DNA from: a virus
Strand: one strand, 5' to 3'
Virus genome (UHGV): UHGV-0129253
Length of the DNA: 64,000 bases
Positions within the stretch are counted from its first letter, which is position 1. Each line of letters starts with the position of its first letter. The translations under genes and the position numbers were made by a program. Shown one piece after another: positions 1 to 63,725 of the stretch. The notes beneath the pieces were generated by a model, which was given only the letters and a program-made list of their open reading frames with translations, ran no database searches and was not told the origin of the DNA.

Positions 1-11
1 TCAAGTTTACA

Positions 12-650
12 TTGAAAGGTTATGCAGAGGATGCGGTAGGCCAGATCATTATTGATAAAGGCATCGTTAAGTTTGAGGGGGATTTTGATGAATCCGCGAA
101 AACATTCATAGACTTCGTTGCCAAACGTTGGAGCGAGCAATGGAAAGACCTGGAAAAGCGCGCTAGTGAGTTTGATCGGTTCATGGATGCAATGGATACA
201 GCAAAAGAGGCTCTTGCTGCCGGGACTCCGTTAGATCTGGAGTCACTTTTCAACGGCGAAGTGGCCTCTGCGATGTTCGCCACCATGTTCGCGGGTGAGT
301 TCGTCCGCAGCGGTGCCAAAAACTACCTTGAGCTGGATTACAACGTCCCTGCAATTGGCGATTTCGTCGTTACCATCCAACGCAAAGAAGGTAAGACGCC
401 AGGTGAACGCGTCGCAGAGCTTGAGGCCGTTGTGGATCAGCGTAACGGAGAGTGTGACCGTTTGATCAACGAGCTTCATGCACTTCGGGAAGAAAGAATA
501 TGCGCGGGTAGCAATACACGTAATGCAGCGGATATCTACTTCCAGTTAGTTGAGGAATGCCAGATTCCACCAGGCGGCTCTCTTGTCGATTACGTCAGAC
601 ATTTAATGGCGGAAGTTAACTCCAGCCATAAAGATGGTGAGGTGCGCTGA
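12..650 (+). CDS. Hypothetical protein, possibly 5'-partial (TTG at window edge, no upstream in-frame stop)
   Basis: 212-aa ORF; stop overlaps next start (ATGA). Confidence 0.45.
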   Translation: MKGYAEDAVGQIIIDKGIVKFEGDFDESAKTFIDFVAKRWSEQWKDLEKRASEFDRFMDAMDTAKEALAAGTPLDLESLFNGEVASAMFATMFAGEFVRSGAKNYLELDYNVPAIGDFVVTIQRKEGKTPGERVAELEAVVDQRNGECDRLINELHALREERICAGSNTRNAADIYFQLVEECQIPPGGSLVDYVRHLMAEVNSSHKDGEVR

Positions 651-1030
651 TGTTTGGCATTGACGCACAGCGTATAGCCGCTTTTGCAAAAAGCCCTCTT
701 GATAATCCCTTGTCTCGTAGTGAGCAAATGGAGCTGGCAAGGCTTTTTCTTCACATTCAAAAACAGGCAGACATTTTCAATAACATGCCTAATCAACCTA
801 TTCTGGATGGTCACATCCAGATGGTCATTAACAGTCATGAGAAAGGCTGGGCTGCAATCGTCCCCTGCACAATTACATACAAGTTGGCGAAAGAGGTTCA
901 AGAGTTTCGAAAAGCCAGTGTCGAATCGGAGTCTACCAAAGCCGCAATAAACACTCTTATTCGCATGGGGTTCACATGGACCGGTGGAGCCTACTGGCAA
1001 GCACCTCAACCCATTTTATCCGGCAATTAG
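650..1030 (+). CDS. Hypothetical protein
   Basis: 126-aa ORF translationally coupled to upstream ORF; hairpin downstream. Confidence 0.5.
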   Translation: MFGIDAQRIAAFAKSPLDNPLSRSEQMELARLFLHIQKQADIFNNMPNQPILDGHIQMVINSHEKGWAAIVPCTITYKLAKEVQEFRKASVESESTKAAINTLIRMGFTWTGGAYWQAPQPILSGN

Positions 1031-1061
1031 GCGCTACAAATCCTTCTGCATGAATAAATAA

Positions 1062-1080
1062 AGGCCATAACTTATGGCCT
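1062..1080 (+). terminator. Perfect hairpin AGGCCATAA-C-TTATGGCCT after ORF 650-1030 (no clear T-run)
   Basis: 9-bp inverted repeat read directly. Confidence 0.35.
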
Positions 1081-1081
1081 T

Positions 1082-1140
1082 AAATAAATTGTTTTCTACC
1101 TTTTCTTATTTGTGAAAATAAACCAGCACTTGGTAGTGCT
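1082..1140 (+). promoter_or_regulatory. Early-type promoter module: degenerate palindrome AAATAAATTGTTTT, TGTGAAAAT extended -10-like box, palindrome AGCACTtggtAGTGCT
   Basis: Same ~40-bp module (ATTTGTTTTCTACC...TGTGAAAAT) recurs at 8011 and 12461. Confidence 0.35.
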
Positions 1141-1168
1141 TATGTAACAGCAAAGAAGAGAAAAACAC

Positions 1169-1720
1169 ATGAGTAACAAAATCGAAAATCCCGTAGTTCT
1201 CATTCACAAGCGCGAGAACCACGACTCCTATGCGGTGGCGATCACCAATGGGAGTCACGATTTTTACGATGGCCTGCTAATGGCCTCAGTGTCGCCTGAT
1301 GAGGCAGACAACTCTTTTGCCGTCTTCGCTATGGTTGGTTACTACATGGCTGCCGAAATTGAGAAGTTGCGGGCGCAGAGAGACGCATTAGCGGCGGAGA
1401 ATGTGGCATTGCGATCTAAGGCTGCGGAACTGGCACATGAAGCGTCAAAAATTTACTCGGCATATAACGCCACTATCACAGAGCCTGACGGGGATTTTAT
1501 GGACATGCAGACATTGCATGAAATGCAGTGCATAGAAACTCCAGCCACCGATGCTTTTCTGGCTGAAGTACGTGCGCAGGGCGTGGATATGGCTCGTAAC
1601 GCGATGATTGATTTTGTTGATGGTGAAGTTGGGCCAAACAAGAACGTTCCGGGGCTGATTAGAGGCGCAGAGATATGCGTAAGTATTGCTGAACAGCTTC
1701 GCAAAGGAGGCAACCAGTGA
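1169..1720 (+). CDS. Ead/Ea22-like prophage early protein
   Basis: 183-aa ORF; resembles the ead/Ea22-like family of lambdoid prophage early regions (from memory, not searched). Confidence 0.55.
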   Translation: MSNKIENPVVLIHKRENHDSYAVAITNGSHDFYDGLLMASVSPDEADNSFAVFAMVGYYMAAEIEKLRAQRDALAAENVALRSKAAELAHEASKIYSAYNATITEPDGDFMDMQTLHEMQCIETPATDAFLAEVRAQGVDMARNAMIDFVDGEVGPNKNVPGLIRGAEICVSIAEQLRKGGNQ

Positions 1721-2523
1721 GCAAGATTGACTATCAGGCACTGCGTGAAAAGGCAGAGAAAGCAACGTGTGGCGAGTGGGCGCTAGAATATGGAGATGGC
1801 AGATTTGATGGTGATGATGCACTAATTCATCGCGAGGCTGCTGGATATATTCCCATTTGCAGAATTGAAGGAGCGCATCCTGAAAGCGGTTTCGATGAAG
1901 ATTTCCAAATGGAGCAGCAGGCCAATGCTGAATTCATCGCCGCAGCCAACCCGGCTACTGTGCTGGTATTACTGGATGAACGGGAAAGGAACCAGCAATA
2001 CATCAAACGCCGTGACCAGGAGAACGAGGATATTGCGCTAACGGTTGGGAAGCTGCGCGTTGAGCTGGAAGCCGCAGAGAAGCGCATTGCTGAACTGGAG
2101 TCACTGATGGAACCAAAGTTACCGCAGCCAGCGGTGGTTGACAACGATAAGTTCCGAGCGGATTTTGAACGGTGGATGGTTGAGGATGAAAAGTGCATCG
2201 TAGGAAGCTCTGACCCTTATCCAGCTGGGATTGAGTCACGCAACTGGAGAGCATGGAACGCCTGCCGCGCCGCCATGCTTCAGAGTCAAGATAGTGGCAT
2301 TAAGGATAGCTGGATAAGCTGTAGTGAGCGAATGCCGGATACCAAAACAGCCGTTCTTGTTGCCAAGGAGTTTGATAGGAAAGGTGACTGGCGAATGAAA
2401 TGGGCGACTTACATCCCGGGGCATCCTGACGCTAATGATGGGTGGATCATTCCTGGGGCGTCGTGGAAACCGTCACACTGGATGCAGCTACCAGAACCTC
2501 CGCAGGAGTCGCAGAGTGAATAA
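1717..2523 (+). CDS. Ead/Ea22-like family protein with coiled-coil and Trp-rich C-terminal region
   Basis: 268-aa ORF, GTG start overlapping upstream stop. Confidence 0.5.
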   Translation: MSKIDYQALREKAEKATCGEWALEYGDGRFDGDDALIHREAAGYIPICRIEGAHPESGFDEDFQMEQQANAEFIAAANPATVLVLLDERERNQQYIKRRDQENEDIALTVGKLRVELEAAEKRIAELESLMEPKLPQPAVVDNDKFRADFERWMVEDEKCIVGSSDPYPAGIESRNWRAWNACRAAMLQSQDSGIKDSWISCSERMPDTKTAVLVAKEFDRKGDWRMKWATYIPGHPDANDGWIIPGASWKPSHWMQLPEPPQESQSE

Positions 2524-2737
2524 AGCAGAGTTATTTCAGAAAATATCGGCTCTCGCGACTGAATGTCACGCTATAGCATCTGAGCTTGATGTTGGCGGTG
2601 AACGAACCGAGATGTTCGAAATATACAGTGTGCTGCGCAATCTCTGTCGGCGTGGCTACGCCACTCAAGTAGGGCGAATGACTAACCCACTACTCTCATC
2701 CTGTGATGAGGATGACTCGGATGAGGATGACGAATGA
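2516..2737 (+). CDS. Small hypothetical protein with acidic C-terminus (DEDDSDEDDE)
   Basis: GTG start at 2516 with AGGAG ~9 nt upstream; the ORF track's longer start overlaps the upstream gene. Confidence 0.45.
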   Translation: MNKAELFQKISALATECHAIASELDVGGERTEMFEIYSVLRNLCRRGYATQVGRMTNPLLSSCDEDDSDEDDE

Positions 2738-3399
2738 TGCATAAATCAGTAGCCGGTGAGTTTCAGAAGGAAGTCGATAATACTACCGTTCTATTGGACG
2801 ATATTTTAAGCATTCTCGCGCTTCTTGAGGCTGGCGATTGGTCAGAACATTGCACTAAAACGGAGTTAGGCGGTCGGCTTGAAAGAGAGATTACACGACT
2901 TATTGGTGATGCGCAGGAAGCTACAGTCACTAGTTATGAGTTAATCGCTGAAGCCTGGCGTTTGATGGATGGACAAGATCCTAAAACTAGCGATTGGCAT
3001 AGCAAGGCTTCGAAGTATTTAAATTCCGATAGGGTAGAAAAAGTTGATGATGTGAAACCGAAGCCAGTAGACCACGGTTTCCGCGATAACTGCGAATGCT
3101 CTAGTTGCCAGACCACGGCCCGTATTTGTTCCGAATTGACAGATAAGTCCAGCCTAATCTACGAAGTTAATGTAGGCGGTAATACATGGGTCGAATGCAC
3201 AAGAGCTGCATACGTAAGAGCAAAAGACAAGGGTGAATTAACCAGAGTTGTTGCCCATCACCCAAATAATGAGCTTAAAGATCACCAGATTAGAGAACTG
3301 GTGAACGAGTTGCGGGATATTGCGGTTCAGTACCACGGAACGCAGCAATTGCGGGAGAAAATTGCCAGAGCAGTGAACAACTCAGTCCGTAAAAAATAA
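2734..3399 (+). CDS. Hypothetical protein (Cys cluster CECSSCQ)
   Basis: 221-aa ORF, ATGA overlap with upstream gene. Confidence 0.5.
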   Translation: MMHKSVAGEFQKEVDNTTVLLDDILSILALLEAGDWSEHCTKTELGGRLEREITRLIGDAQEATVTSYELIAEAWRLMDGQDPKTSDWHSKASKYLNSDRVEKVDDVKPKPVDHGFRDNCECSSCQTTARICSELTDKSSLIYEVNVGGNTWVECTRAAYVRAKDKGELTRVVAHHPNNELKDHQIRELVNELRDIAVQYHGTQQLREKIARAVNNSVRKK

Positions 3400-3786
3400 G
3401 CAATAGTACGATAAAGAGGCCCCATGCTCTTGATGGGGCCTGTAGCAACTAGCGTTATGGACGCTGGTTTACGTACTCAATGATCGCTTTGATAATCGCG
3501 AACATCGGCGGCACGATTTTGAACAGTAAGTTAACCATAACAGGCCTCACTTAGTTTTATCGCGCCTAGCTGCAAATACCTTTGGGCTTGCCTTTGCAGT
3601 TGCAATATCTGTAGTCGCCAGATACTTACGGCACGATTTCGAGTTAAGGTAAGGTTTTAGAGTCACCAAAAACCTGGACTTAAATCTTCTTTGAGAACAA
3701 CGATGTTTAGTAAATGGTCATTATTACCTGGTATGACCACTCAACGTTTCTTGATGAATCCAGTACATTCGGTTAATCTTAATTCA

Positions 3787-3870
3787 GTCGCCAGATACTT
3801 ATGGCTCAGGAACAGAGCCGCAAACTCTGTTTCCTTTTAAAAAGCCCAGCCTAGTCAACTGGGCTTTTTA
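3787..3870 (+). ncRNA. Candidate small RNA: repeated 16-mer AGTCGCCAGATACTTA, then hairpin AGGAACAGAG/CTCTGTTTCCT, then terminator hairpin plus T-run
   Basis: No ORF; two hairpins and a terminator in ~65 nt; the 16-mer also occurs at 3615. Confidence 0.25.
3843..3870 (+). terminator. Rho-independent terminator (AGCCCAG...CTGGGCT + TTTTT)
   Basis: 7-bp stem, 9-nt loop, T5 run. Confidence 0.55.
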
Positions 3871-4164
3871 ATGTCTATTTTTAACCCAACATACCCTCAA
3901 TACTGCAACATCAGTGTCTTGCGAATTAAGATAGTGTGAATAGATTTTTCATGCAAGTGCATAAGCCTGTGGATAACTCAGGAAGGAAAAAGTGACTTCT
4001 GCGCACTTTAGACAGGACAAGGCGTTCGAAAAAGTCAATGGGAAGAAAAAATTTGTTAAAAATAACGTTTGTTTGAATTGTATATATTTATGCCTTTCAA
4101 TAGTTAGCATCTTATTAACATCTTTTTTAAGAGATAGAGTTCAAAAATATATAGCTTCAATATA

Positions 4165-4184
4165 TACTGTATGTGTATACAGTA
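4165..4184. promoter_or_regulatory. LexA (SOS) box TACTGTATGTGTATACAGTA
   Basis: Perfect CTGT-N8-ACAG, 17 nt upstream of the UmuD'-like start. Confidence 0.7.
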
Positions 4185-4200
4185 TTAAGAGGCGAGTATT

Positions 4201-4590
4201 ATGGGCTTCCCTTCTCCTGCGGCGGATTATGCTGAGAGCCGTATTTCTCTTGATCAGCAGATAATTAGACATCCTTCAGCGACCTACTTCATGAGGGCAG
4301 CTGATAGTCATCATCGTGAGGGAATATTACAGGGTGCATTGCTGGTGGTCGATTCCTCACTTACCCCGGTTGATGGTTCTCTGCTTGTATGCGCTCTGGA
4401 TGGGGAATATCGCGTAAAAAGATACCGGAAGTACCCACGTCAGCATCTGGAGGATTTAAGAACCGGTAAGAAGGAAGCATTGCCAAAGGATGACGATGGA
4501 TGCACGGGCAGCAATGCCGTGTTTGGTGTGATCACTCACATTATCAACGACGCAAGAAGTGGCGAGTTTGATGATTGTCCTGTGATGTAG
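4201..4590 (+). CDS. UmuD'-like SOS mutagenesis protein (S24 LexA-like peptidase fold), HumD-like pre-processed form
   Basis: MGFPSPAADY...HPSATYF... begins at the UmuD Cys24-Gly25 cleavage position; LexA box upstream; no umuC partner in window. Confidence 0.75.
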   Translation: MGFPSPAADYAESRISLDQQIIRHPSATYFMRAADSHHREGILQGALLVVDSSLTPVDGSLLVCALDGEYRVKRYRKYPRQHLEDLRTGKKEALPKDDDGCTGSNAVFGVITHIINDARSGEFDDCPVM

Positions 4591-4601
4591 GAGAACTGTT
4601 T

Positions 4602-4626
4602 AGGTGGTGCAATGCACCACCTTTTT
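4602..4626 (+). terminator. Hairpin AGGTGGTGCA-A-TGCACCACCT + TTTT between convergent humD-like and mrp
   Basis: 10-bp stem plus T-run. Confidence 0.55.
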
Positions 4627-4627
4627 A

Positions 4628-5728
4628 TCACACTGCGCGGAATGCGATTTCGCCAGGTATTACTTCACCTTGCCAATACATTTGGGCAGCAACGCGATCT
4701 GCGAGGTCACGATAAATAGCCGTAAATTCACTATCTGGACGACTAATAACGGTTGGTGTTCCGTTATCCAGATCTTCACGAAGAGAGATATGAAGTGGCA
4801 TTTGGCCTAACAACTGCGTGTTGTATTTCTCGGCCAGTTTCTGTGCGCCACCGGTGCCAAAAATTGGCTCGTGATGACCGCAGTTACTGCAAATATGCAC
4901 ACTCATGTTTTCGACGATACCCAGTACCGGCACTTCGACTTTTTCGAACATCACAATGCCTTTCTTCGCATCGATCAGCGCGATGTCTTGCGGCGTAGTT
5001 ACCACAACCGCACCAGTTACAGGAATGTTCTGCGCCAGCGTCAACTGAATATCACCAGTGCCCGGCGGCATATCGAGAACGAGATAGTCCAGATCAGGCC
5101 ATATAGTTTCCTGCAACATCTGCATCAGCGCCTTGCTGGCCATCGGTCCACGCCACACCATTGCATTGTCGTCGGTGACCAGATAACCAATAGAGTTGGT
5201 TGCCAGGCCATGAGACATGATAGGTGCCATGTGAGTACCGTCAGGTGAGGTTGGACGTTGGTTTTCCGCGCCCAGCATGGTTGGAATTGATGGACCATAG
5301 ATATCGGCATCCAAAATACCAACTTTCGCACCTTCAGCAGCCAACGCCAGTGCCAGGTTTACCGCCGTGGAGGATTTACCCACGCCGCCCTTGCCTGAGC
5401 TGACGGCGATAATGTTCTTAACGCCATTAATGCCTGGTTGGTTTTTGACGCGCTTAAGCGTGGCAATGTTGTACGACAGCTTCCAGTCAATAGCCTTTGC
5501 GCCAGTGATACGGAGCAGATCACCACTACATTGCTCTTTCAGGTCTTCAAAAGGCTTATTCCACACGAAAGGCATGATTAGTTCGACATGCAGTGTGTCA
5601 TCCATCAACGCAACATGGTGTAACGCTTTAAGCGTAGTCAGGTTGTGTTTCAGGGTTGGGTGCTGAAAATTAGCCAGCGTACCGGCTACCATTGCTCTCA
5701 GGGCATCCGGCGATTTGGACTCGCTCAT
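4628..5728 (-). CDS. mrp: Iron-sulfur cluster carrier ATPase Mrp/ApbC
   Basis: 366 aa, P-loop SSGKGGVGKS, near-full-length match to enterobacterial Mrp; divergent from metG as in E. coli. Confidence 0.9.
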   Translation of the reverse strand: MSESKSPDALRAMVAGTLANFQHPTLKHNLTTLKALHHVALMDDTLHVELIMPFVWNKPFEDLKEQCSGDLLRITGAKAIDWKLSYNIATLKRVKNQPGINGVKNIIAVSSGKGGVGKSSTAVNLALALAAEGAKVGILDADIYGPSIPTMLGAENQRPTSPDGTHMAPIMSHGLATNSIGYLVTDDNAMVWRGPMASKALMQMLQETIWPDLDYLVLDMPPGTGDIQLTLAQNIPVTGAVVVTTPQDIALIDAKKGIVMFEKVEVPVLGIVENMSVHICSNCGHHEPIFGTGGAQKLAEKYNTQLLGQMPLHISLREDLDNGTPTVISRPDSEFTAIYRDLADRVAAQMYWQGEVIPGEIAFRAV

Positions 5729-5885
5729 CCCGTCTCCTTTATTTTAATTTGCGCAATTGTCGCCTTGTAGTGTACTCCAGCTACGGCATTTAATCATTTA
5801 TGAGAAATGCTGTTATCACATGGCAGACATAAGGCCATTTTGTTACTATCAAGCCCCTTTTCACTACAAAGAAGTAATGCCTACT

Positions 5886-7919
5886 ATGACCCAAGTCGCG
5901 AAGAAAATTCTGGTGACGTGCGCGCTGCCGTACGCTAACGGCTCAATCCACCTCGGCCATATGCTGGAGCACATCCAGGCTGATGTCTGGGTTCGTTACC
6001 AGCGAATGCGCGGCCACGAGGTTAATTTCATCTGTGCCGACGATGCCCACGGTACGCCGATCATGCTGAAAGCGCAGCAGCTTGGTATCACACCGGAGCA
6101 GATGATTGGCGAAATGAGTCAGGAACACCAGACTGATTTCGCAGGCTTTAACATCAGCTATGACAACTATCACTCGACGCACAGCGAAGAGAACCGCCAG
6201 CTGTCTGAGCTTATCTATACTCGCCTGAAAGAGAACGGTTTTATTAAAAACCGCACTATCTCTCAGTTGTACGATCCGGAAAAAGGCATGTTCCTGCCGG
6301 ACCGTTTTGTAAAAGGCACCTGCCCGAAATGTAAAGCGCCAGATCAATACGGCGATAACTGTGAAGTCTGCGGCGCAACATATAGCCCGACTGAATTGAT
6401 CGAGCCGAAATCGGTGGTTTCTGGCGCTACCCCGGTAATGCGTGATTCTGAACACTTCTTCTTTGATCTACCCTCTTTCAGCGAAATGTTGCAGGCATGG
6501 ACCCGCAGCGGCGCGTTGCAGGAGCAGGTGGCGAACAAAATGCAGGAATGGTTTGAATCCGGCCTGCAACAGTGGGATATCTCCCGCGATGCGCCTTACT
6601 TCGGTTTTGAAATTCCGAACGCGCCGGGCAAATATTTCTACGTCTGGCTGGACGCGCCGATTGGCTACATGGGTTCCTTCAAGAATCTGTGCGACAAGCG
6701 CGGCGATACCACCAGCTTCGATGAATACTGGAAGAAAGACTCCACCGCCGAGCTGTACCACTTCATCGGTAAAGATATTGTTTACTTCCACAGCCTGTTC
6801 TGGCCTGCCATGCTGGAAGGCAGCAACTTCCGCAAGCCGACCAACCTGTTTGTTCACGGCTATGTGACGGTGAACGGCGCGAAGATGTCCAAGTCTCGCG
6901 GCACCTTTATTAAAGCCAGCACCTGGCTGAATCATTTTGACGCTGACAGCCTGCGTTACTACTACACTGCGAAACTCTCTTCGCGCATTGATGATATCGA
7001 TCTCAACCTGGAGGATTTCGTTCAGCGCGTGAATGCCGATATCGTGAACAAAGTGGTTAACCTGGCCTCTCGTAATGCAGGCTTTATCAACAAGCGTTTT
7101 GACGGCGTGCTGGCAGGCGAACTGGCTGACCCGCAACTGTACAAAACCTTTACTGATGCCGCTGAAGTGATTGGCGAAGCATGGGAAAGCCGCGAATTTG
7201 GTAAAGCTATCCGTGAAATCATGGCACTGGCTGACCTGGCTAACCGCTATGTCGATGAACAGGCTCCGTGGGTGGTGGCGAAGCAGGAAGGTCGCGATGC
7301 CGATCTGCAGGCGATTTGCTCTATGGGCATTAACCTGTTCCGCGTGCTGATGACTTACCTGAAACCGGTACTGCCGAAACTGACTGAACGTGCAGAAGCA
7401 TTCCTGAATACAGAACTGACCTGGGATGGTATCCAGCAACCGCTGCTGGGCCATAAAGTGAATCCGTTCAAGGCACTGTATAACCGTATCGATATGAAAC
7501 AGGTGGAAGCACTGGTGGAAGCATCCAAAGAAGAAGTGAAAGCCACAGCCGCACCGGTAACTGGCCCACTGGCTGACGACCCGATTCAGGAAACCATCAC
7601 CTTTGACGACTTCGCCAAAGTTGACCTGCGTGTGGCGCTGATTGAAAACGCGGAGTTTGTTGAAGGTTCTGACAAACTGTTGCGCCTGACGCTGGATCTC
7701 GGCGGTGAAAAACGCAATGTCTTCTCAGGCATCCGTTCTGCTTATCCAGACCCACAGGCACTGATTGGTCGTCACACCATTATGGTGGCTAACCTGGCTC
7801 CGCGTAAAATGCGCTTCGGTATCTCCGAAGGCATGGTGATGGCTGCTGGCCCCGGCGGGAAAGATATCTTCCTGTTAAGCCCGGATGTCGGTGCTAAACC
7901 TGGCCACCAGGTTAAGTAA
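5886..7919 (+). CDS. metG: Methionine--tRNA ligase
   Basis: 677 aa from ATG 5886 ([25 protein letters not shown]...); HIGH-type and KMSKS motifs; the ORF track's 5757 start is an upstream artefact. Confidence 0.95.
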
Positions 7920-7941
7920 TTAAGCAACCATTCTTCACAAT

Positions 7942-7965
7942 GCCCAGCAATACGCTGGGCATTTT
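7942..7965 (+). terminator. metG terminator (GCCCAGC...GCTGGGC + TTTT)
   Basis: Hairpin plus T-run 23 nt after stop. Confidence 0.55.
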
Positions 7966-8003
7966 CATATAGACACAACCCCTTCTGACTTTAACAAACC
8001 CTA

Positions 8004-8018
8004 AAACAATTTGTTTTC
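8004..8018. promoter_or_regulatory. Early-type palindrome AAAACAA-T-TTGTTTT
   Basis: Perfect 7-bp arms; upstream of a GATAAT -10-like box. Confidence 0.4.
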
Positions 8019-8052
8019 TACCTTTTATTGATTGAGATAATAAGCCACATAA

Positions 8053-8068
8053 GAAAACAAATTGTTTC
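8053..8068. promoter_or_regulatory. Early-type palindrome GAAAACAAATTGTTTC
   Basis: 13 nt upstream of ATG 8081. Confidence 0.4.
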
Positions 8069-8080
8069 GGAGTGGTTGAA

Positions 8081-8380
8081 ATGTTGAACATTACCCAAGC
8101 CTACCAGGTGGCATTGATCAGTTCATCTCATACATCAGAGGAAGATGCTCGCCGATTCATGATCGCAAGCAATGAGCTGGATTGGGTTTCACAAATTGAC
8201 GGCGGTTGTATTGTCCACGCTGGGTTACAGGATGATGTCTGGAAAGAGGACTTGCGTCGATATGGTATATCCGAAGGCGCGATTGCTAACATTCAGAAAG
8301 TACTTGATGTAGGCTTTGACTCTGTACATTTTGATTGTGGTGCGCCGGTCGTTGAAGGGCTTGAGTGCTGGAACTGGTAA
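8081..8380 (+). CDS. Hypothetical protein
   Basis: ATG 8081 with GGAG upstream. Confidence 0.5.
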   Translation: MLNITQAYQVALISSSHTSEEDARRFMIASNELDWVSQIDGGCIVHAGLQDDVWKEDLRRYGISEGAIANIQKVLDVGFDSVHFDCGAPVVEGLECWNW

Positions 8381-8425
8381 CAGATATTAAAGCATTGGTA
8401 GTTTGTTTTTAGGATTATCAAAGAA

Positions 8426-9160
8426 ATGAAAAAGTTGAAAAGTTTAGAAATCCCTGGGACTGGTTATAAATTCTTTATGGACAACGCGGAGTGTGCACCT
8501 AACGCGTTGGAAAAAATACAAAGTCTTATCAACAGCCTTACTGAAGAAGCGAAAGAACTGAATAGCGAGGCGACAAAGGACAATACAGCTAAAATCCAAT
8601 GCTTAAATCTCGTTTCTTATTGTTTATATCAAGTGTCCAAGACACTGATTAAAGGCAATATCTATTACGACGATGAAGACACCTCGACACCTGAAGAAAA
8701 AGATAGCGATGAAGAACTCTATGAAGATATCTCTACTAGTGCGGGTCACGCTGCCTTCGATGCTATGGGTAAATCGTCAGGCATCAGATCGTTTGTTGAA
8801 CAGAACAATTCGACAATAATGATTGAGTACTGTGAACAAACAAGCTCCAAGGCCATACATGTTCTTCACGATGTTGCTGCAGGGGTTCGCTGTGAGGCTG
8901 AAGCGGTCAGAAAAGATGTATTTGGTGCAGACAGTAATACCGTGAAAGCGTTCATCAACAGTGCTCTGCTAAATTCTTACTCAAACCTTATCGTCAATGC
9001 GGCACTATGCGCAAATTCTGGTGAAGAACACATTGTCATAACCGAAACCAAATATGAGCATCAACAGTCACCAACCATAGAAGAGGTAACTGCATTGGCT
9101 ATCAAACAGGCGAGTGAAATTAGTGATGAAATTCTCTCTCTGCTAAACAAAACTAAGTAA
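8426..9160 (+). CDS. Hypothetical acidic protein
   Basis: 244-aa ORF with acidic stretches (DDEDTSTPEEKDSDEELYED). Confidence 0.5.
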   Translation: MKKLKSLEIPGTGYKFFMDNAECAPNALEKIQSLINSLTEEAKELNSEATKDNTAKIQCLNLVSYCLYQVSKTLIKGNIYYDDEDTSTPEEKDSDEELYEDISTSAGHAAFDAMGKSSGIRSFVEQNNSTIMIEYCEQTSSKAIHVLHDVAAGVRCEAEAVRKDVFGADSNTVKAFINSALLNSYSNLIVNAALCANSGEEHIVITETKYEHQQSPTIEEVTALAIKQASEISDEILSLLNKTK

Positions 9161-9229
9161 AACATTGATAATGGCGGTCACAATTTGATTCTTTTCTATA
9201 AGAATCCGTTGATCGCCACTACTCCCCTT

Positions 9230-10020
9230 CCATGCCTGGAATCACATCCTTAAATATCAATAGGTTACAGTTGTTTATACCAATAAGAAAACAACTGAAT
9301 AACAGATCAACGAAACATCAACGCTTTCACCCGATTTGGTCTAAAAAATTGACGTTTTCACACATCACTGCTTATACCCGTAATTCTACGCAGCAGACAG
9401 CGCCACAGCGTCCAATTTTCACCACAGACGACCCAACACACTACCAACAAAAACACACGCTCAAAATCGCTCCCGTTGCGTTACACAACCATATAAACAA
9501 CTTATTTTCAGGTATAACGAAACAACTAAATAACACATATGCCATTTCCAAAAACAACCAACCTCTTTATGGCAGGCTACCGAAAAGACCCACCTCTTCT
9601 CCCCAGGCTACCGGACAACCAACCTAACTTTCACAGGCAATCCGAAAACATTCATACGCGCGATACCCACGACACGCCATTACCCAAACAGCGAAGAAAC
9701 ACCAGAATCACTGAACCCCCAACGAAGCCTGTAACCGCAAGGCTTCTCTCAATCCCAAAAGACACGAAACAGAACAATCACGGGAAACGCCATTACCCAA
9801 CACACGAATAACTACAAAAGCCTTTCACACACTCCAGACAAACAACTCAAACACAATAACGAAAGGAATCGCCCACCTGCCATTACTCCATACACGGAGA
9901 AGAACAATCACCAAAACGACGAGAACACCCCATAGAAGAACCACCGCAAAACGAACGAAACCACATACACCGACAGAGAAAACAACACACCCAATTCACC
10001 AACAGAAATAGTCGCCGTAT
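9230..10020. other. G-depleted A+C-rich noncoding tract (~0.8 kb)
   Basis: Plus strand ~12-15% G by hand count on three 60-nt lines; ORFs in it translate to low-complexity sequence. Confidence 0.5.
9551..9653 (+). repeat. Direct repeats of CAGGCTACCG(A/G)A(A/C)AA..CC(A/C)ACCT (3-4 copies)
   Basis: Same family recurs at 13565-13648. Confidence 0.4.
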
Positions 10021-10219
10021 AGAACGTTCTGGAAGGAGTGAGCATTAACGCCTATAGAGAGGTTGAAACAGATAAAACACGAAGAAAACACAACATGTAT
10101 AGCGAACAAGACAGGTATGTATAAGTGGGGAGGGAAGGAGGGGTGTTGCCTCCTTTTTCGTATTTATTCAACTCCTGATTTTATCCCCCGTAACACCCCT
10201 ACGGTCAGCCTTCGGTCCA

Positions 10220-10360
10220 TACAGGGAAAAGGCTGCATCCTGCTACAGAAACGGCTGGGTTGCCTTCGGGGAACGGCTGGGGATTTTCAGGGAAACGGTC
10301 GAGTTGCCTGTGTGGATTTCGGGAAAAGGCTCGATGCCGGTTCAGGAACGGTGGCGTACC
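10220..10360 (+). repeat. Iteron array: six copies of (C)(A/G)GGAAA(A/C)GGCTG at ~21-24 bp spacing, with a DnaA-box-like TGTGGATTT
   Basis: Copies at 10222, 10246, 10268, 10288, 10320, 10343. Confidence 0.5.
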
Positions 10361-10690
10361 GGTATAGCGTGAGGGAGAGTTGCGGCTACCCACCTGTAAT
10401 GTGCGGGAAGAAGAGAGGCGCTCACGTGCAGGCGAACTTACTTACCGCAGGATTCCCTCTGAATGCCCAACTACAGCGTAATTGTGCCAGACAGCCAACG
10501 GGTCACAATCGATTTCAGTAGGTTTTCGGGGAGATGATTATTCTGCCCACCAGCCACCTTCGGCCACTAAATCAGAATAATGTAAAAAGTGTACTCGGTA
10601 CTGAACCTGAAAACTCACTGCCAAAACCACATTCACCGGAATAAAATCCTTTTCCGCCTTTGTCTTATTGCGATAATAACACCAACAAGT

Positions 10691-10704
10691 AAACAACATG
10701 TTTA
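10691..10704. promoter_or_regulatory. Early-type palindrome AAACAACATGTTTA after a GATAAT box
   Basis: Module CGATAAT(A/T)ACACCAACAAG-AAACAA..TGTTT shared with 13180 and 13670. Confidence 0.35.
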
Positions 10705-10735
10705 GACGTTATATAAACGAAGTGAGGATGAAGAG

Positions 10736-10954
10736 ATGATTAAGATGCCTGTGACGGTTGAGGTGTGGGGCGTGGATTCCCTGGCTGAGTGTCTGGATGC
10801 AGTGGGGCCGGAGTTGTACCGCAAGTTGTGGTCGTTCGTCCCGGCAGAAGGGGAATCGCCCAAAGGGAAGGATATCTGGCACCTGCTGAGTGAAGATGAA
10901 AAGCGAGAGCTGGTGGACGCGGTACACAGCGAGTTCCCGGGCGACGAAGATTAA
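10736..10954 (+). CDS. Small acidic hypothetical protein
   Basis: 72 aa; GTGAGGATG upstream; terminator downstream. Confidence 0.5.
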   Translation: MIKMPVTVEVWGVDSLAECLDAVGPELYRKLWSFVPAEGESPKGKDIWHLLSEDEKRELVDAVHSEFPGDED

Positions 10955-10961
10955 GAGTGAG

Positions 10962-10983
10962 GCCACCAGCACGGTGGCTTTTG
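10962..10983 (+). terminator. Terminator hairpin GCCACCAGCACGGTGGC + TTTTG
   Basis: One of a family of AAGGCCACCA...TGGTGGCCTT hairpins (also 11434, 13053, 13525). Confidence 0.5.
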
Positions 10984-11066
10984 TCGCTATTAACCTCCGG
11001 GGCAGCGCAGCACCGTAACGATATACTTTGTGGCCGTTTTCTTACTGGTATTGTTTACGCAATTCA

Positions 11067-11083
11067 GAAAACAACATGTTTAA
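11067..11083. promoter_or_regulatory. Early-type palindrome GAAAACAACATGTTTAA
   Basis: Downstream of a TATTGT -10-like box; module shared with 11520. Confidence 0.35.
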
Positions 11084-11093
11084 GGATTGCGTT

Positions 11094-11423
11094 ATGTTTG
11101 CAAATATCGACATCAACCAAATTAAGAAATTAACTCAAAAAGAGTTTGATCAGTTTTATGAGTTAGAAGGTTGGTCTTCCACTCTGATCAATTCGCGGTG
11201 GGTGCTTGAGCTGATGACTCGTGATGACGCACCTGCTTTGATGATTTGCGACATGGGTGAAGATGCTGACTTTATGGATATGAGCGAATTTTGTGTGGAC
11301 ACATACAACCGCAGCCAGAAGTACTACTTCACATGCGATAGCGAAAATGACGTGATTTCTAAGGTCTATCTTCACCTCGTCCAGCATTGGGACGTTCAGG
11401 AGTTTCTTGAAGTATTCGAGTAA
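11094..11423 (+). CDS. Hypothetical protein
   Basis: ATG 11094 with AAGGA 7 nt upstream; the longer track start lacks an RBS. Confidence 0.45.
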   Translation: MFANIDINQIKKLTQKEFDQFYELEGWSSTLINSRWVLELMTRDDAPALMICDMGEDADFMDMSEFCVDTYNRSQKYYFTCDSENDVISKVYLHLVQHWDVQEFLEVFE

Positions 11424-11550
11424 CCCCAACCAAAGCCAGCAATGCTGGCTTAATTTCTCTATAGCCGCAGGGAAGAACCTGCATATAGCTCATGCACCTG
11501 ATCAATATGCTTTGTAGCCGTTTTCTTACTGGTATTATTTACGCCATTGA

Positions 11551-11567
11551 GAAAACAAGTTGTTTAC
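11551..11567. promoter_or_regulatory. Early-type palindrome GAAAACAAGTTGTTTAC
   Basis: Follows a TATTAT -10-like box. Confidence 0.35.
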
Positions 11568-11576
11568 GGAGTTGTG

Positions 11577-11888
11577 ATGAAAAAATCATTGGTTCTTGGT
11601 CTGGACAAAGACCAGAAGAGAAAAGAGAAGCCTGCACTGGTTGCTCAATTAACTTTGCTAGACATCGTTGCCAATGGAACCTCTATTCGTCTGTTCCGTG
11701 AAACAGCGGTGTCTTTCGATAAAAACACCTTTACTCGTTATGTAATGAATGTTCGTCGCCAGCGTGGAAAAGGCTGGATGGCATTTCAAAGAATGTGGCC
11801 GGAACATCAGCTCGAACTGGCTTTGATGGAAGTTAACCGCGTGGCCCAGCAAGAAATTCAGAGAGCATCAGTGATGGCAATAGCCTGA
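11577..11888 (+). CDS. Hypothetical protein
   Basis: ATG 11577 with GGAG upstream. Confidence 0.5.
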   Translation: MKKSLVLGLDKDQKRKEKPALVAQLTLLDIVANGTSIRLFRETAVSFDKNTFTRYVMNVRRQRGKGWMAFQRMWPEHQLELALMEVNRVAQQEIQRASVMAIA

Positions 11889-11922
11889 TAATGTGCAAGT
11901 GGTAATTAGTCGACAGTACGAC

Positions 11923-11951
11923 AGCCCCGCCATCCTTACGGGGCTTTTTTG
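11923..11951 (+). terminator. Rho-independent terminator (AGCCCCG...CGGGGCT + TTTTTT)
   Basis: Hairpin plus T6. Confidence 0.65.
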
Positions 11952-12014
11952 TATTGTAAGTACATACTTACGATCATAGAATAGAAAAATAACCAATACA
12001 CTACGGAGAGTGAA

Positions 12015-22846: not shown

Positions 22847-22861
22847 GAAAACAAGTTGGTT
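22847..22861. promoter_or_regulatory. Early-type half-palindrome GAAAACAAGTTGGTT
   Basis: Upstream of TerS-like gene. Confidence 0.3.
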
Positions 22862-52707: not shown

Positions 52708-53229
52708 TTATTCTTCGAACAATTTTTCGATAGATTTTGTTGGATAGAACAAAGAACGATCGTTGTTACCAACCAGCTGGATAAAGCCCAAACTTTTATA
52801 AAACGCCCTGGCTTTATCGTTCAACGCCTCAACGAAAAGCCCATGAATGCCTACCGCAAGAGATGCATTGTACACAACACGCATTGCGTGAGTTACAAGC
52901 ATTGAGCCAAGCCCCTGACCTTGAAGAGATTTGTCCAAAGCCAGTCTGCCTAAAGTGATACTTGGGACATTCCGATAAGGCACTTTCTTTTGCTGACTCT
53001 TTGAAGGTAAGGTTTCTTTCTCAAAGCAGCTGCCTGACAAAGTGTAATAACCTAATACCTTTGGTATTTCTTCTTTAGTGCAAAGCACATAAGCGCGAAG
53101 AATTTTTCCTTCATGCTGTCTTTTTAAGTGGTTGGTCAAAAATGCGTTTAGTGACTCTTCGCCGCAATCAAAACCGTTTAGATCATAATCGTTCTCTCCA
53201 GAGAAAATCTCGATCGTCGTATTGCTCAC
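52708..53229 (-). CDS. GNAT-family toxin (TacT/AtaT/KacT-like type II TA toxin)
   Basis: 173 aa GNAT; paired with upstream DUF1778-type antitoxin. Confidence 0.75.
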   Translation of the reverse strand: MSNTTIEIFSGENDYDLNGFDCGEESLNAFLTNHLKRQHEGKILRAYVLCTKEEIPKVLGYYTLSGSCFEKETLPSKSQQKKVPYRNVPSITLGRLALDKSLQGQGLGSMLVTHAMRVVYNASLAVGIHGLFVEALNDKARAFYKSLGFIQLVGNNDRSLFYPTKSIEKLFEE

Positions 53230-53236
53230 GAGTAAA

Positions 53237-53506
53237 TTACTCCATGCTTTTCAGACGATTGGCAGCTCGTTTCAGCTTGTCGTTCGGTGCCGGAGGATTG
53301 CTTATAGCATCCATAACCAGATTCCAGGACTCTTCACTTAGAACCAGTCTACGGTGTTGCTCTATCACCTTCACGGCACGTTCGGATGCACTGCTAACCA
53401 TGAACTGGGTAATGCTCTGGTTAGACATTGCGGCAGCTTCCTCGATGATGCTTTTATCGTCATCGGTTAATCTCAAATCGATGCGCTGCTTTTTCAGTGC
53501 GGACAT
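53237..53506 (-). CDS. DUF1778 / RHH antitoxin (TacA/AtaR-like)
   Basis: 89 aa, 7 nt upstream of the GNAT gene on the same strand. Confidence 0.75.
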   Translation of the reverse strand: MSALKKQRIDLRLTDDDKSIIEEAAAMSNQSITQFMVSSASERAVKVIEQHRRLVLSEESWNLVMDAISNPPAPNDKLKRAANRLKSME

Positions 53507-53775: not shown

Positions 53776-53791
53776 GAAAACAAGTTGTTTC
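53776..53791. promoter_or_regulatory. Early-type palindrome GAAAACAAGTTGTTTC upstream of the ParA-like gene
   Basis: 35 nt upstream of ATG 53826, followed by GATAAT. Confidence 0.4.
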
Positions 53792-53825: not shown

Positions 53826-54494
53826 ATGACCAAGATCTTTGTGGTTGGCGGCACAAAGGGCGGGCCTGGCAAATCCACTGTTGCCCAGCAAATTGCCGTT
53901 TGCCTGAAAGTCAAAAAGAAGAAGAAGGTTTATATCACTGATATAGATATTCAGCGCACGACAACAAGCTGGTGTGAAGACCGTAGACAGAACGAAGACC
54001 TTGAGCTGATTCCTTTTGCATACGTTCAGGATGACATCATTAAGCACCTAAAATCGCTTCAGGGTAGAGCTGAGTTTGTAGTGGTAGATGCTGGTGGCTT
54101 TGACTCCGAAATTCAGCGACAAGCGATGCTGATGGCCGACGTTATCATTATCCCGCTTCGTCCCAAGCGTCGTGATTTGAAATCTCTGCGTGACATTGAT
54201 CCTATTATCGACAATGTTCGTAATGTAAACGATAAAGTGAAGGTCCGCGCGGTCATGAACCAGTGCCCGGCTTTGCCATCACAAGTGTCTCGCATTCTGG
54301 CGGCTAAAGAGATTGTTGAGACGTTTGGCATCGAGTCTGCGCCAGTCAATTTATATAACCGCAACGTCTATGATGATGCGGAAGAGTCTGGTCGTTCTAT
54401 CTTTGAAATGACCGGTAGCGAGCGCGACAAAAAGGCGGAAGCCGAGTTTGAAGAATTTGTAGATTATCTGTTGAGTCTGGAGGAAGAAGAATAA
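53826..54494 (+). CDS. ParA/ParF-type partition ATPase
   Basis: Deviant Walker A GGTKGGPGKST; 222 aa. Confidence 0.8.
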   Translation: MTKIFVVGGTKGGPGKSTVAQQIAVCLKVKKKKKVYITDIDIQRTTTSWCEDRRQNEDLELIPFAYVQDDIIKHLKSLQGRAEFVVVDAGGFDSEIQRQAMLMADVIIIPLRPKRRDLKSLRDIDPIIDNVRNVNDKVKVRAVMNQCPALPSQVSRILAAKEIVETFGIESAPVNLYNRNVYDDAEESGRSIFEMTGSERDKKAEAEFEEFVDYLLSLEEEE

Positions 54495-56739: not shown

Positions 56740-58080
56740 ATGACCGAACTTTGCCATACAGGACGCGGGCTGTCCGAAGAGTTTGATGAAGATTTTCAGA
56801 ACAGATTGACGGCCTATTTTTGTCGTGATCACGAGTTTCTTACTCGTGCTGGAGATCTGGTTGTACCTAGCCAATTTGCCAATGCGGCCAATGCCATATT
56901 GGTTAATATGGTTTCGGGCTATTACCGTATGTACAAGAGCGCGCCCTCTTCATCTGCGATTCTGGATATGCTTAAGCGTGCGAAACGCGATAAGACTATC
57001 CGTGAGGAACTATTCGCCGATGTTGTTGCTGCGTTTAAGCGCATCCTTGCAGAAAAATTGTCTGATACCTCGTACATGGTTGACCAGGTATCAACCTTCG
57101 CAAAAAGCGTAGCGTTTGATGATGCTCTGATTAAGGCTGCTGAACTGAAAGAGAAAGGCGACTTTCAGGGGGCGATGGCAATCATGGCCAAGGTTCAGCA
57201 GATTGGATCGAACGAAGCGACCGGAATCTATGACTACTACACCTCCGCAAGTGAGCGATTGAAAGCGCGTGAATATGAGGCTTCAGAGGAGTATGTACCA
57301 AACAGTATTACAACTGGACTCCCTCTTCTCGATAGGTTGCTGTACCAAAAAGGCTGGGCAAAGCGCGAAATGGTGCTCTTCATGGGGTTCGCTAAATCCG
57401 GTAAATCGACCGCAATGGGTGAGTTTTCCATAAACGCAACGCTTGCTGGCTACAATGTTCTGTATCTCTCGCTGGAGGTTCACACCACCATTTTATCCGA
57501 CCGTTTTGATGCAAGATTGTCGGAGACAGAAATGTCCAAGCTGGTGGAACGGCGCGATGAGGTTCATCGTAAGTTGGCAGAGTTGGGAGCCACGAAGGGG
57601 ATTGGTAGTTTGTGGGTTGTTGAGCGTCCGTCAGGAAGTATGTCACCGGCAGATCTGGATCGTATGCTTAACAGCATGAAAGCCAATGGCATGGTGCCTG
57701 ACATGGTTGTTGTCGACTATGCAGATTTGATGCGTGCCAGTTATGACCTTCGTGATGATCGCGCCAACATACGTAGTATCTATACCGACTTACGTGCTCT
57801 TTATGACAAACACAACGTTGCTGGTATCACAGCATCGCAAACAAACCGTGAAGGTGGCGCGTCAGAAGTTGCCACAATGATGCACGCTGCCGACAACATC
57901 GAAAAAGTACGTATTGCTGACCTGGTAATAACGATCAACAAAACCGAAGAAGAAGAAGCGAAAGGAGAGGCTCGTCTCTACTTTGCTGGTTCACGTAACC
58001 AGCAGGGAGGGATCAGCATTCGCGTTAAACAAAACCTCGAACAAATGCGCTTCATTGAGCGAATCTTAGACGTTACCTAA
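56740..58080 (+). CDS. DnaB-family replicative helicase
   Basis: Walker A GFAKSGKST, Walker B VVVDYADLM, SQTNRE motif. Confidence 0.7.
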   Translation: MTELCHTGRGLSEEFDEDFQNRLTAYFCRDHEFLTRAGDLVVPSQFANAANAILVNMVSGYYRMYKSAPSSSAILDMLKRAKRDKTIREELFADVVAAFKRILAEKLSDTSYMVDQVSTFAKSVAFDDALIKAAELKEKGDFQGAMAIMAKVQQIGSNEATGIYDYYTSASERLKAREYEASEEYVPNSITTGLPLLDRLLYQKGWAKREMVLFMGFAKSGKSTAMGEFSINATLAGYNVLYLSLEVHTTILSDRFDARLSETEMSKLVERRDEVHRKLAELGATKGIGSLWVVERPSGSMSPADLDRMLNSMKANGMVPDMVVVDYADLMRASYDLRDDRANIRSIYTDLRALYDKHNVAGITASQTNREGGASEVATMMHAADNIEKVRIADLVITINKTEEEEAKGEARLYFAGSRNQQGGISIRVKQNLEQMRFIERILDVT

Positions 58081-63478: not shown

Positions 63479-63553
63479 GATGGTGTAGCTCAGCGGTAGA
63501 GCAGTTGGCTGTTAACCAACTGGTCGGTGGTTCGAATCCACCCACCATCGCCA
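63479..63553 (+). tRNA. tRNA-Asn (anticodon GUU)
   Basis: Hand-folded cloverleaf: acceptor GATGGTG/CACCATC, D-stem GCTC/GAGC, anticodon loop CTGTTAA, T-arm GGTGG-TTCGAAT-CCACC, encoded CCA; unlike the enterobacterial tRNA-Asn as I recall it. Confidence 0.8.
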
Positions 63554-63558
63554 ATTTA

Positions 63559-63645
63559 GGGGAGTTAGTCCGTAGGGGCAGCGGGGTAGACTGTAAATCT
63601 ACTGTCATTGCGACTCGGGTGGTTCGACTCCATCACTCCCCACCA
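63559..63645 (+). tRNA. tRNA-Tyr (anticodon GUA), type II with long variable arm; D-arm non-canonical
   Basis: Acceptor GGGGAGT/ACTCCCC, anticodon arm GTAGA-CTGTAAA-TCTAC, variable-arm hairpin GTC-ATTGC-GAC, T-arm GGTGG-TTCGACT-CCATC, encoded CCA. Confidence 0.6.
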
Positions 63646-63649
63646 AATT

Positions 63650-63725
63650 GCCGGTTTAGCTCAGTTGGTAGAGCGCCTGCCTTGTAAGCAGGATGTCAGC
63701 GGTTCGATCCCGTTAACCGGCACCA
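63650..63725 (+). tRNA. tRNA-Thr (anticodon UGU)
   Basis: Acceptor GCCGGTT/AACCGGC, D-stem GCTC/GAGC, anticodon arm CCTGC-CTTGTAA-GCAGG, T-loop TTCGATC, encoded CCA. Confidence 0.8.

Follow-up and report, generated by a model that had tools for sequence, protein, structure and literature searches.

The 64,000-nt viral genome stretch UHGV-0129253, here called the window, raises the question of how two housekeeping genes of enterobacterial chromosomes, apbC (mrp) and metG, came to lie between genes of phage type. metG encodes methionyl-tRNA synthetase (MetRS), a class I aminoacyl-tRNA synthetase, and apbC encodes an iron-sulfur cluster carrier of the P-loop nucleoside triphosphatase family. The initial annotation offered three readings of this arrangement: cargo captured by a mobile element, a junction between the chromosome and related prophage segments, or a chimeric assembly. 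Our analysis shows that the arrangement is real and that the cassette in 4591-7997 is captured cargo. Judged by its homologies, the window comes from a phage-plasmid of the SSU5 supergroup (a siphovirus kept as a low-copy circular plasmid of ~108 kb), and not from an integrated temperate phage. The explanation we favor overall, and consider likely, is that this SSU5-type phage-plasmid holds an old apbC-metG cargo which has been retained by selection for a persistence benefit.

Both genes are intact and of host type, as first described, and their products score far above the NCBIfam cut-offs. MetG reaches 1017.7 bits over residues 4-677 of 677 (cut-off 587 for NF001100), and ApbC reaches 758.1 bits with residues 2-366 covered (cut-off 348 for NF008669). 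MetG contains HLGH, the HIGH motif, at residue 22 and KMSKS at 333, the zinc-knuckle pairs CPKC at 146 and CEVC at 159, and the C-terminal tRNA-binding/dimerisation domain (PF01588 at 581-674; TIGR00399 at 543-677). ApbC contains the P-loop GKGGVGKS, a deviant Walker A motif, at residue 112 and the CXXC motif CSNC at 280.

The flanking sequence identifies the carrier. Positions 1-12000 of the window are ~98% identical to, and colinear with, circular plasmids of ~108 kb from 74 complete E. coli genomes, and they also match the phage records Cyrano (= pLF82), CMS-2020a and PhiR41_1. Over 1-25000, 98% identity was found to plasmids of E. coli, E. albertii and Shigella sonnei that bear metG and apbC, and to pLF82. 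For the ~109-111-kb S. sonnei plasmids NZ_CP034066.1 and NZ_CP099775.1, in which both genes are annotated, this identity holds over 89% of the 25 kb. The best matches to the window are E. coli plasmids at 98-99%, and none is identical. The order humD, apbC, metG and regulatory module recurs in the three phage records and in circular plasmids of ~105-115 kb, about 200 in number and assembled independently of one another, which bears out the captured-cargo reading. The structural arm (20000-44999) shares 80.8% nucleotide identity with phage SSU5 over 82% of its length, a match that spans terminase, portal, capsid, tape measure and tail genes. Genes for a ParA-family ATPase, a DnaB-like helicase and a TacA antitoxin/GNAT toxin pair supply plasmid maintenance functions in the window (Table 1), and the near-identical plasmid pEC332_01 carries terminase, portal, capsid, tape-measure, tail fibre, ParB, MipZ/ParA, DnaB, ligase and TacAT genes. 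Within this supergroup the element falls in the E. coli/Shigella lineage, together with pLF82/Cyrano and the S. sonnei plasmids. The dual lifestyle has been documented for the LF82 plasmid, which has a copy number of about 5.5 and ciprofloxacin-inducible virions; Cyrano virion DNA was 32-fold above the contamination level by quantitative PCR, siphovirus particles were observed, and ciprofloxacin raised virion production 39-fold (PMC9928086).

Comparison with a cassette-free relative, pGS04EC-1, delimits the cargo. Within this region blastn matches pGS04EC-1 to the window at 4093-4590 and 7998-8380 only; because homology ends at 4590 and resumes at 7998, the sequence between these points is a variable cargo slot. 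In pGS04EC-1 the slot (its positions 6236-6979) is occupied by a minus-strand DUF4145 gene instead of the cassette, and SSU5 has host-type ydfZ (its positions 5736-5939, minus strand) at the same place in its accessory arm. With these different occupants, the slot behaves as a point of cargo exchange. The features first listed around the cassette are all present, with two corrections: the metG start codon is at 5886 rather than 5887, and the humD and apbC stop codons are 37 nt apart rather than 38. A hairpin does lie between these two stops; its T-run is on the plus strand only, terminator-like for humD, and none is present on the minus strand, the apbC side. The hairpin downstream of metG is confined to phage-plasmid cassettes: its sole match among the at least 80 loci listed is the Salmonella phage-plasmid CP053410.1, and it was found in none of the chromosomes sampled. 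The backbone module begins at 7998, about 35-40 nt past this hairpin. The DUF5983-family gene that follows is annotated at the same place in Cyrano and pEC332_01. The cassette is kept even where the left flank has been deleted (pAMPD1) or replaced (a 64-kb plasmid of E. albertii).

These data decide against the two other readings of the initial annotation. If the window spanned a junction between the chromosomal mrp-metG locus and flanking prophage segments or remnants, host-type genes would be expected, and a chromosomal copy is indeed present in all 5426 complete E. coli genomes. However, the K-12 pair is flanked by yehE and yehF with no phage genes there, and homology of the window to the E. 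coli chromosome is limited to 4632-7920, at 88-90% overall. The comparison with the chromosomal locus that had been suggested was run and gave a diverged cassette with different neighbours: identity is only 94.2% for metG and 82% for apbC at the nucleotide level and ends at both stop codons, while the flanks and cassette are colinear in about 200 circular plasmids of ~108 kb. Among the 5426 genomes we found neither a plasmid-type apbC in a chromosome nor an integration at metG. We therefore give the junction practically no credence. An assembly chimera of chromosomal reads with phage or plasmid contigs, which has only its a priori possibility in its favor, fares no better and has a negligible probability: many complete assemblies, made independently in different laboratories and from different hosts and species (E. 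coli, E. albertii, E. fergusonii and S. sonnei), show the same junctions, and a divergence of 6-18% from any E. coli chromosome means that the cassette was not assembled from host chromosomal reads.

The age of the cargo can be judged from its divergence. Compared with K-12, plasmid metG has a synonymous divergence (dS) of 0.28 and a nonsynonymous divergence (dN) of 0.007, with 98.5% amino acid identity, and plasmid apbC has a dS of about 1.5 and a dN of 0.034. Between K-12 and Escherichia sp. E1V33 the dS values are 0.58 for apbC and 0.28 for metG, a ratio of only about 2. In a neighbor-joining bootstrap analysis of 37 taxa, plasmid metG nests within Escherichia (100% support) and forms a trichotomy with K-12 and E1V33; plasmid apbC sits on a long branch outside the pair of K-12 and E1V33, and its wider grouping with Escherichia has 80% support. 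Among the apbC records of complete E. coli genomes, 216 (220 places) have at least 90% identity to the plasmid allele and are on plasmids, and the remaining 5421 records are at 82-83%. The two allele classes are thus cleanly apart, and the plasmid type is found in about 4% of these genomes. From the dS values of both genes and the separation of the allele classes, we infer that the cassette was captured from an enterobacterial chromosome long ago and is not a fresh pick-up.

The cassette is kept functional by strong purifying selection, with a dN/dS of about 0.02 among plasmid copies. For metG, dN/dS is 0.01-0.035 at dS values up to 0.19 (five plasmid copies); four plasmid copies of apbC differ by up to 29 nt and encode identical ApbC proteins. 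Because the equivalog scores are high, the catalytic motifs are present, dN/dS is low and the cassette persists through changes of its flanks, function appears to have been retained. By the same dN/dS and its amino acid identity to the K-12 enzyme, plasmid MetRS is predicted to be active in aminoacylation.

Table 1. Coordinates of the cassette, its flanks and other features of the window (positions in nt)
Feature	Position	Strand	Basis or remark
LexA-box-like palindrome TACTGTATGTGTATACAGTA (CTGT-N8-ACAG), perfect	4166-4185	plus	upstream of humD; read from sequence
humD, UmuD-like S24 peptidase, backbone gene left of slot	4201-4590	plus	NF051876, 219.8 bits vs cut-off 120
Variable cargo slot	4591-7997		holds apbC-metG cassette; blastn vs pGS04EC-1
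Hairpin AGGTGGTGC-AAT-GCACCACCT, 9-bp stem, then TTTTTA	4602-4622	plus	-15.3 kcal/mol, z = -3.3
apbC/mrp, Fe-S cluster carrier P-loop NTPase, 366 aa, intact	4628-5728	minus	NF008669, PF10609
Divergent apbC-metG intergenic region, chromosomal type, 157 nt	5729-5885		alignment with chromosomal loci
metG, methionyl-tRNA synthetase, 677 aa, intact	5886-7919	plus	NF001100, PF09334, PF01588
metG terminator-like hairpin ATGCCCAGC..GCTGGGCAT + TTTTCAT, 10-bp stem	7939-7963	plus	-17.6 kcal/mol, z = -5.1
Backbone module: palindrome at 8004, TGAGATAAT (extended -10-like), second palindrome at 8055, GGAG, ATG	7998-8080	plus
DUF5983-family small gene, first backbone gene right of slot	8081-8380	plus	PF19419, E = 7.8e-11
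Module positions	1082, 8004/8055, 10691, 11069, 11553, 12456, 13206, 13691, 53778, 56708		heads at least ten small genes
TacA antitoxin / GNAT acetyltransferase toxin	52708-53506	minus	PF08681 (TacA); toxin named KacT in Cyrano annotation
ParA-family ATPase	53826-54494		plasmid maintenance function
DnaB-like helicase	56740-58080		plasmid maintenance function
tRNA cluster Asn-GTT, Tyr-GTA, Thr-TGT	63479-63725		ARAGORN and Rfam; second translation-related cargo

Several residues set the plasmid proteins apart from their chromosomal orthologues. S151A, in the zinc-knuckle loop, is the sole MetRS substitution common to the plasmid copies examined and occurs in no chromosome sampled. ApbC is 3 residues shorter than chromosomal orthologues through a plasmid-specific 9-nt deletion near its N-terminus, and it has substitutions at six positions that are invariant in the chromosomes sampled (W41L, S58K, A59P, A69G, H303N and L350M). 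The unique ApbC substitutions are concentrated in the N-terminal domain, to which W41L, S58K, A59P and A69G belong. As a separate observation, contigs of about 109 kb include records of truncated MetG proteins, P0006 (412 aa) and P0014 (479 aa); in some phage-plasmids metG may be interrupted or frameshifted, or these records may be annotation artefacts.

A scan for the donor used MetG against GTDB species representatives and covered at least 80 loci, with the chromosomes of E. albertii, E. fergusonii and E. marmotae not among them. No species closer than Escherichia (88% over the gene pair) was present among the loci listed, and no donor was identified. One of the representatives, CP170191.1, labelled as the chromosome of Enterobacter hormaechei B56, has an mrp-metG pair in which neither gene differs from that of E. 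coli K-12 (100% identity), which suggests a mislabelled or contaminated record.

The two genes of the cassette have different compositions. The GC content at third codon positions (GC3) of plasmid apbC is 0.52, as compared to 0.60-0.62 in Escherichia, and that of plasmid metG is 0.617, the chromosomal value. The shift in apbC from ~0.61 to 0.52 runs towards the GC content of the whole element, which is 47%. By these measures the cassette of the E. coli lineage is a mosaic, with an apbC that has drifted to lower GC3 and a metG that looks Escherichia-like, and this is possibly a new detail.

A second version of the cassette is found in CP053410.1, a Salmonella phage-plasmid of 107.7 kb, where it occupies the same arm. 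Between the apbC stop and a point ~7 nt short of the metG stop, CP053410.1 is 97-100% identical to Salmonella chromosomes. Its last metG codons, terminator hairpin and downstream module are homologous to those of the E. coli phage-plasmid. A right junction of this type was found in no chromosome sampled, nor in the cassette-free relative; the left junction differs between CP053410.1 and the E. coli phage-plasmid. The combination of a Salmonella-type coding sequence with a plasmid-type right junction is possibly also a new detail. We considered whether the Citrobacter-like intergenic region of CP053410.1 is an ancestral relic and rejected this, as a chromosomal fragment of S. Kentucky has the same type at 96-99%. 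Since this intergenic type is native to S. Kentucky, the right junction alone stays diagnostic.

A single ancient capture might account for all metG-bearing SSU5-type phage-plasmids, the coding sequence being overwritten at times by alleles of the host genus through homologous recombination. We hold this scenario tentatively, at slightly less than an even chance. Such overwriting would be the simplest reading of CP053410.1 and is plausible, with the reservation that there is a single Salmonella record and that the left junctions differ. It would plausibly also explain why a "fresh" metG stands beside an old apbC in the E. coli lineage. In Cyrano apbC, ~20 clustered sites within window positions 5162-5420 differ from both the window and pEC332_01, and most of them match the E. 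coli chromosome. Three copies, compared for alleles matching K-12 to look for ongoing gene conversion, are too few to polarise the changes; the stretch is suggestive and possibly a short recombination tract from a chromosome or from another cassette lineage. If true, overwriting implies selection for an auxiliary MetRS that is matched to the host, for example in heterodimer formation or tRNA compatibility, and an essential gene would then offer chromosome and phage-plasmid a standing route for exchange.

The initial annotation also attached weight to a promoter module that is repeated on both flanks of the cassette. The module is real: copies at about 1082, 8004 and 12456 have 31-35 of 44 positions in common, and the window contains 13 copies of their core palindrome AAAACAAnTTGTTTT, compared with an expectation of 0.18 in shuffled sequence. 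However, it is not special to the two flanks, as it heads at least ten genes (Table 1). Members of the palindrome family, which can also be written AAAACAAnTTGTTT(T), include the sites at 22849/22874. Alignment of ten intergenic copies gave a consensus of ~70 nt in which TTCTTTTnTGCCTTTTCTTTATTGnGATAAT (extended -10-like) is followed by AACnCCAACAAGAAAACAAnTTGTTT (leader palindrome), a Shine-Dalgarno sequence and ATG. The copies at 53778 and 56708 precede the ParA and DnaB-like genes, and the module is conserved in the Salmonella relative. To the left, the nearest copy is 3.5 kb from the cassette, and the apbC-metG cassette itself has no copy. Rather than marking the insertion, the module serves the small-gene array as a regulatory unit of general use. 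An element-encoded regulator probably has its operator in the palindrome; alternatively, the palindrome may form a hairpin in a leader RNA.

How, then, would the cassette be expressed? The intergenic region between apbC and metG finds its best matches, at ~75-78%, in chromosomes of Citrobacter species and S. enterica. It contains a TGnTACTAT element, conserved in all chromosomal loci aligned, some 40 nt upstream of the metG start codon, and this region with its element is the putative promoter of the cassette. Sigma-70 sites in 4000-8500 are no more numerous than in shuffled sequence, and for this reason our statements on promoters draw on conservation. We propose that transcription of the two genes starts divergently in the region between them and that the terminator-like hairpins on both sides insulate the cassette. 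Given this promoter region of chromosomal type, the hairpin insulation and the lack of a module, expression would be independent of the phage circuits, as in a "moron". A carrier cell would then gain a second MetRS and a second ApbC at plasmid dosage. On the left side of the slot, the perfect CTGT-N8-ACAG palindrome upstream of humD agrees with the LexA consensus and suggests SOS control of humD, the gene beside the cassette. In the supplementary table of the stationary-phase RNA-seq of LF82, humD (148) is the top-expressed gene of the cassette neighbourhood, with apbC (CYRAN_99) at 92 and metG (CYRAN_100) at about 16; apbC is 9-fold above the prophage background (PMC9928086).

The likeliest benefit keeping the cassette would be the persister effect of an auxiliary metG, a subpopulation able to survive antimicrobials, that has been published for the S. 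sonnei plasmid pWPMR2. As relayed in PMC12452169, Tam et al. 2024 (medRxiv 10.1101/2024.10.27.24316207) associated the phage-plasmid metG of pWPMR2 with multidrug-resistant S. sonnei lineages and reported that its expression gives rise to a subpopulation predisposed to acquire resistance to third-generation cephalosporins. The preprint bioRxiv 10.1101/2025.09.12.675607 places pWPMR2 in SSU5 clade K and reports pWPMR2-like elements in S. sonnei and in E. coli CC131/23/73.

Four points weigh against the explanation we favor. The window is a 64-kb linear excerpt, and the circular, extrachromosomal state of the element would follow from the near-identical complete records, which are closed circles of 105-120 kb, together with the fact that plasmid-type apbC is never chromosomal. 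Both the persistence phenotype and its mechanism are taken second-hand from the sources just cited. Expression of metG in LF82 is only ~1.6-fold over the prophage background, so that strong expression in the lysogen is not demonstrated. Finally, the laboratory alleles do not account for a rise in persistence through an extra, near-wild-type metG. The high-persister metG alleles obtained in the laboratory lower MetRS function (PMC11004401), and plasmid MetRS does not have their changes: ETIT at 569-572 and G263/S264 are intact. An imbalance in dosage, the formation of heterodimers with chromosomal MetRS or a change in homocysteine editing might be the route.

Two other accounts of why the cassette is kept were weighed against a persistence benefit. 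It may mainly serve the phage itself, if extra MetRS (and ApbC) together with the tRNAs sustain initiation and elongation of translation during lytic growth or once a stressed host has been infected, with persistence as a side-effect. The element does carry tRNA-Asn, tRNA-Tyr and tRNA-Thr, the weak metG expression in LF82 lysogens leaves room for expression at induction, and strong purifying selection fits any functional role. On the other hand, the cassette has its own chromosomal-type promoter region and terminators in place of the element's module, apbC is expressed in the LF82 lysogen, SSU5 and many relatives thrive without the cassette, and the published data tie it to a host phenotype. 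We regard a role of this kind as rather unlikely. Still less probable is that the cassette rides along neutrally as a hitch-hiker, or that it serves only as a patch of homology through which the element recombines with the chromosome or integrates into it. Two kilobases at 94% identity to chromosomal metG could support RecA-dependent exchange, and the Salmonella phage-plasmid shows past exchange with the chromosome. But a dN/dS of ~0.02 and identical ApbC proteins despite up to 29 synonymous sites exclude neutrality, a plasmid-type apbC is in none of the 5426 chromosomes, and the cassette has been retained through flank rearrangements. A persistence benefit to the host is thus the reading we retain, with the reservations given above.

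Two further regions of the window deserve mention. Besides the extra MetRS, the replicon encodes a TacA antitoxin with a GNAT partner. Toxins of this class acetylate aminoacyl-tRNAs, and a functional link between the toxin and the extra MetRS may exist. The other region, 9160-10020, is ~860 nt long, with A+C making up 69% of its plus strand, G 12.8% and T 18%, and is the most G-depleted 800-nt stretch of the 64 kb, ~4 standard deviations below the mean. PGAP annotates no gene at the equivalent place in pEC332_01, and the stretch has no Rfam match and no tandem repeat; over the whole window, Rfam gave no match beyond the three tRNAs and Tandem Repeats Finder gave nothing. The bias is kept at the same position in SSU5, the Salmonella phage-plasmid and pGS04EC-1, despite 67-79% sequence identity. 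It may mark a non-coding RNA, an origin-like or single-strand element, or a low-complexity open reading frame.

An essential translation enzyme on an element that is both phage and plasmid is unusual, and the remark in the initial annotation that a phage-borne aminoacyl-tRNA synthetase is uncommon was fair. This case, though, has been described already: according to the accounts of Tam et al. 2024 cited above, phage-plasmid-borne metG is known from pWPMR2, in Shigella and E. coli, and it has been linked there to antimicrobial survival. At the prevalence found among complete E. coli genomes, recognition of the cassette matters for genomic surveillance, and it avoids mis-calling the cassette as contamination, a chimera or a duplicated chromosomal locus. 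The old capture, the strong selection, the mosaic origin and the host-matched Salmonella version suggest long-term selection with occasional exchange with the chromosome. These evolutionary details leave the finding classed as a known feature.

The closest known system is pWPMR2, which belongs to the same family and has the same cargo. The window holds the two features of this type, an SSU5-type backbone and an auxiliary metG; the likeness was drawn from the S. sonnei plasmids in PLSDB and from published descriptions of pWPMR2. Cyrano/pLF82 (OV696614, NC_011917) is 97.8% identical over 94% of window 1-12000 with the same order of humD, apbC, metG and small gene, and differs in its Ea22-region genes, in metG (39 nt, 3 aa) and in apbC (21 nt, 1 aa). 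Its authors gave apbC the name "MinD" and left metG undiscussed (PMC9928086). SSU5/pHCM2 resembles the window in the structural arm and in an accessory arm made of a DUF4942 methyltransferase followed by the small-gene array; SSU5 is without humD, apbC and metG and carries an HD phosphohydrolase, host-type ydfZ and other genes instead. The mrp(apbC)-metG locus of E. coli K-12 (b2113-b2114) has the same genes, divergent orientation, lengths and proximal metG upstream element, but differs in sequence (94% for metG and 82% for apbC at the nucleotide level), in its terminator and intergenic type, and in apbC GC3. The laboratory alleles metG delta-ETIT, metG630 and metG83/87 affect the same gene with the same reported class of phenotype, persistence or tolerance (PMC11004401). 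Those alleles are loss-of-function-like changes in the only copy of the gene, whereas the phage-plasmid provides an additional and essentially wild-type copy.

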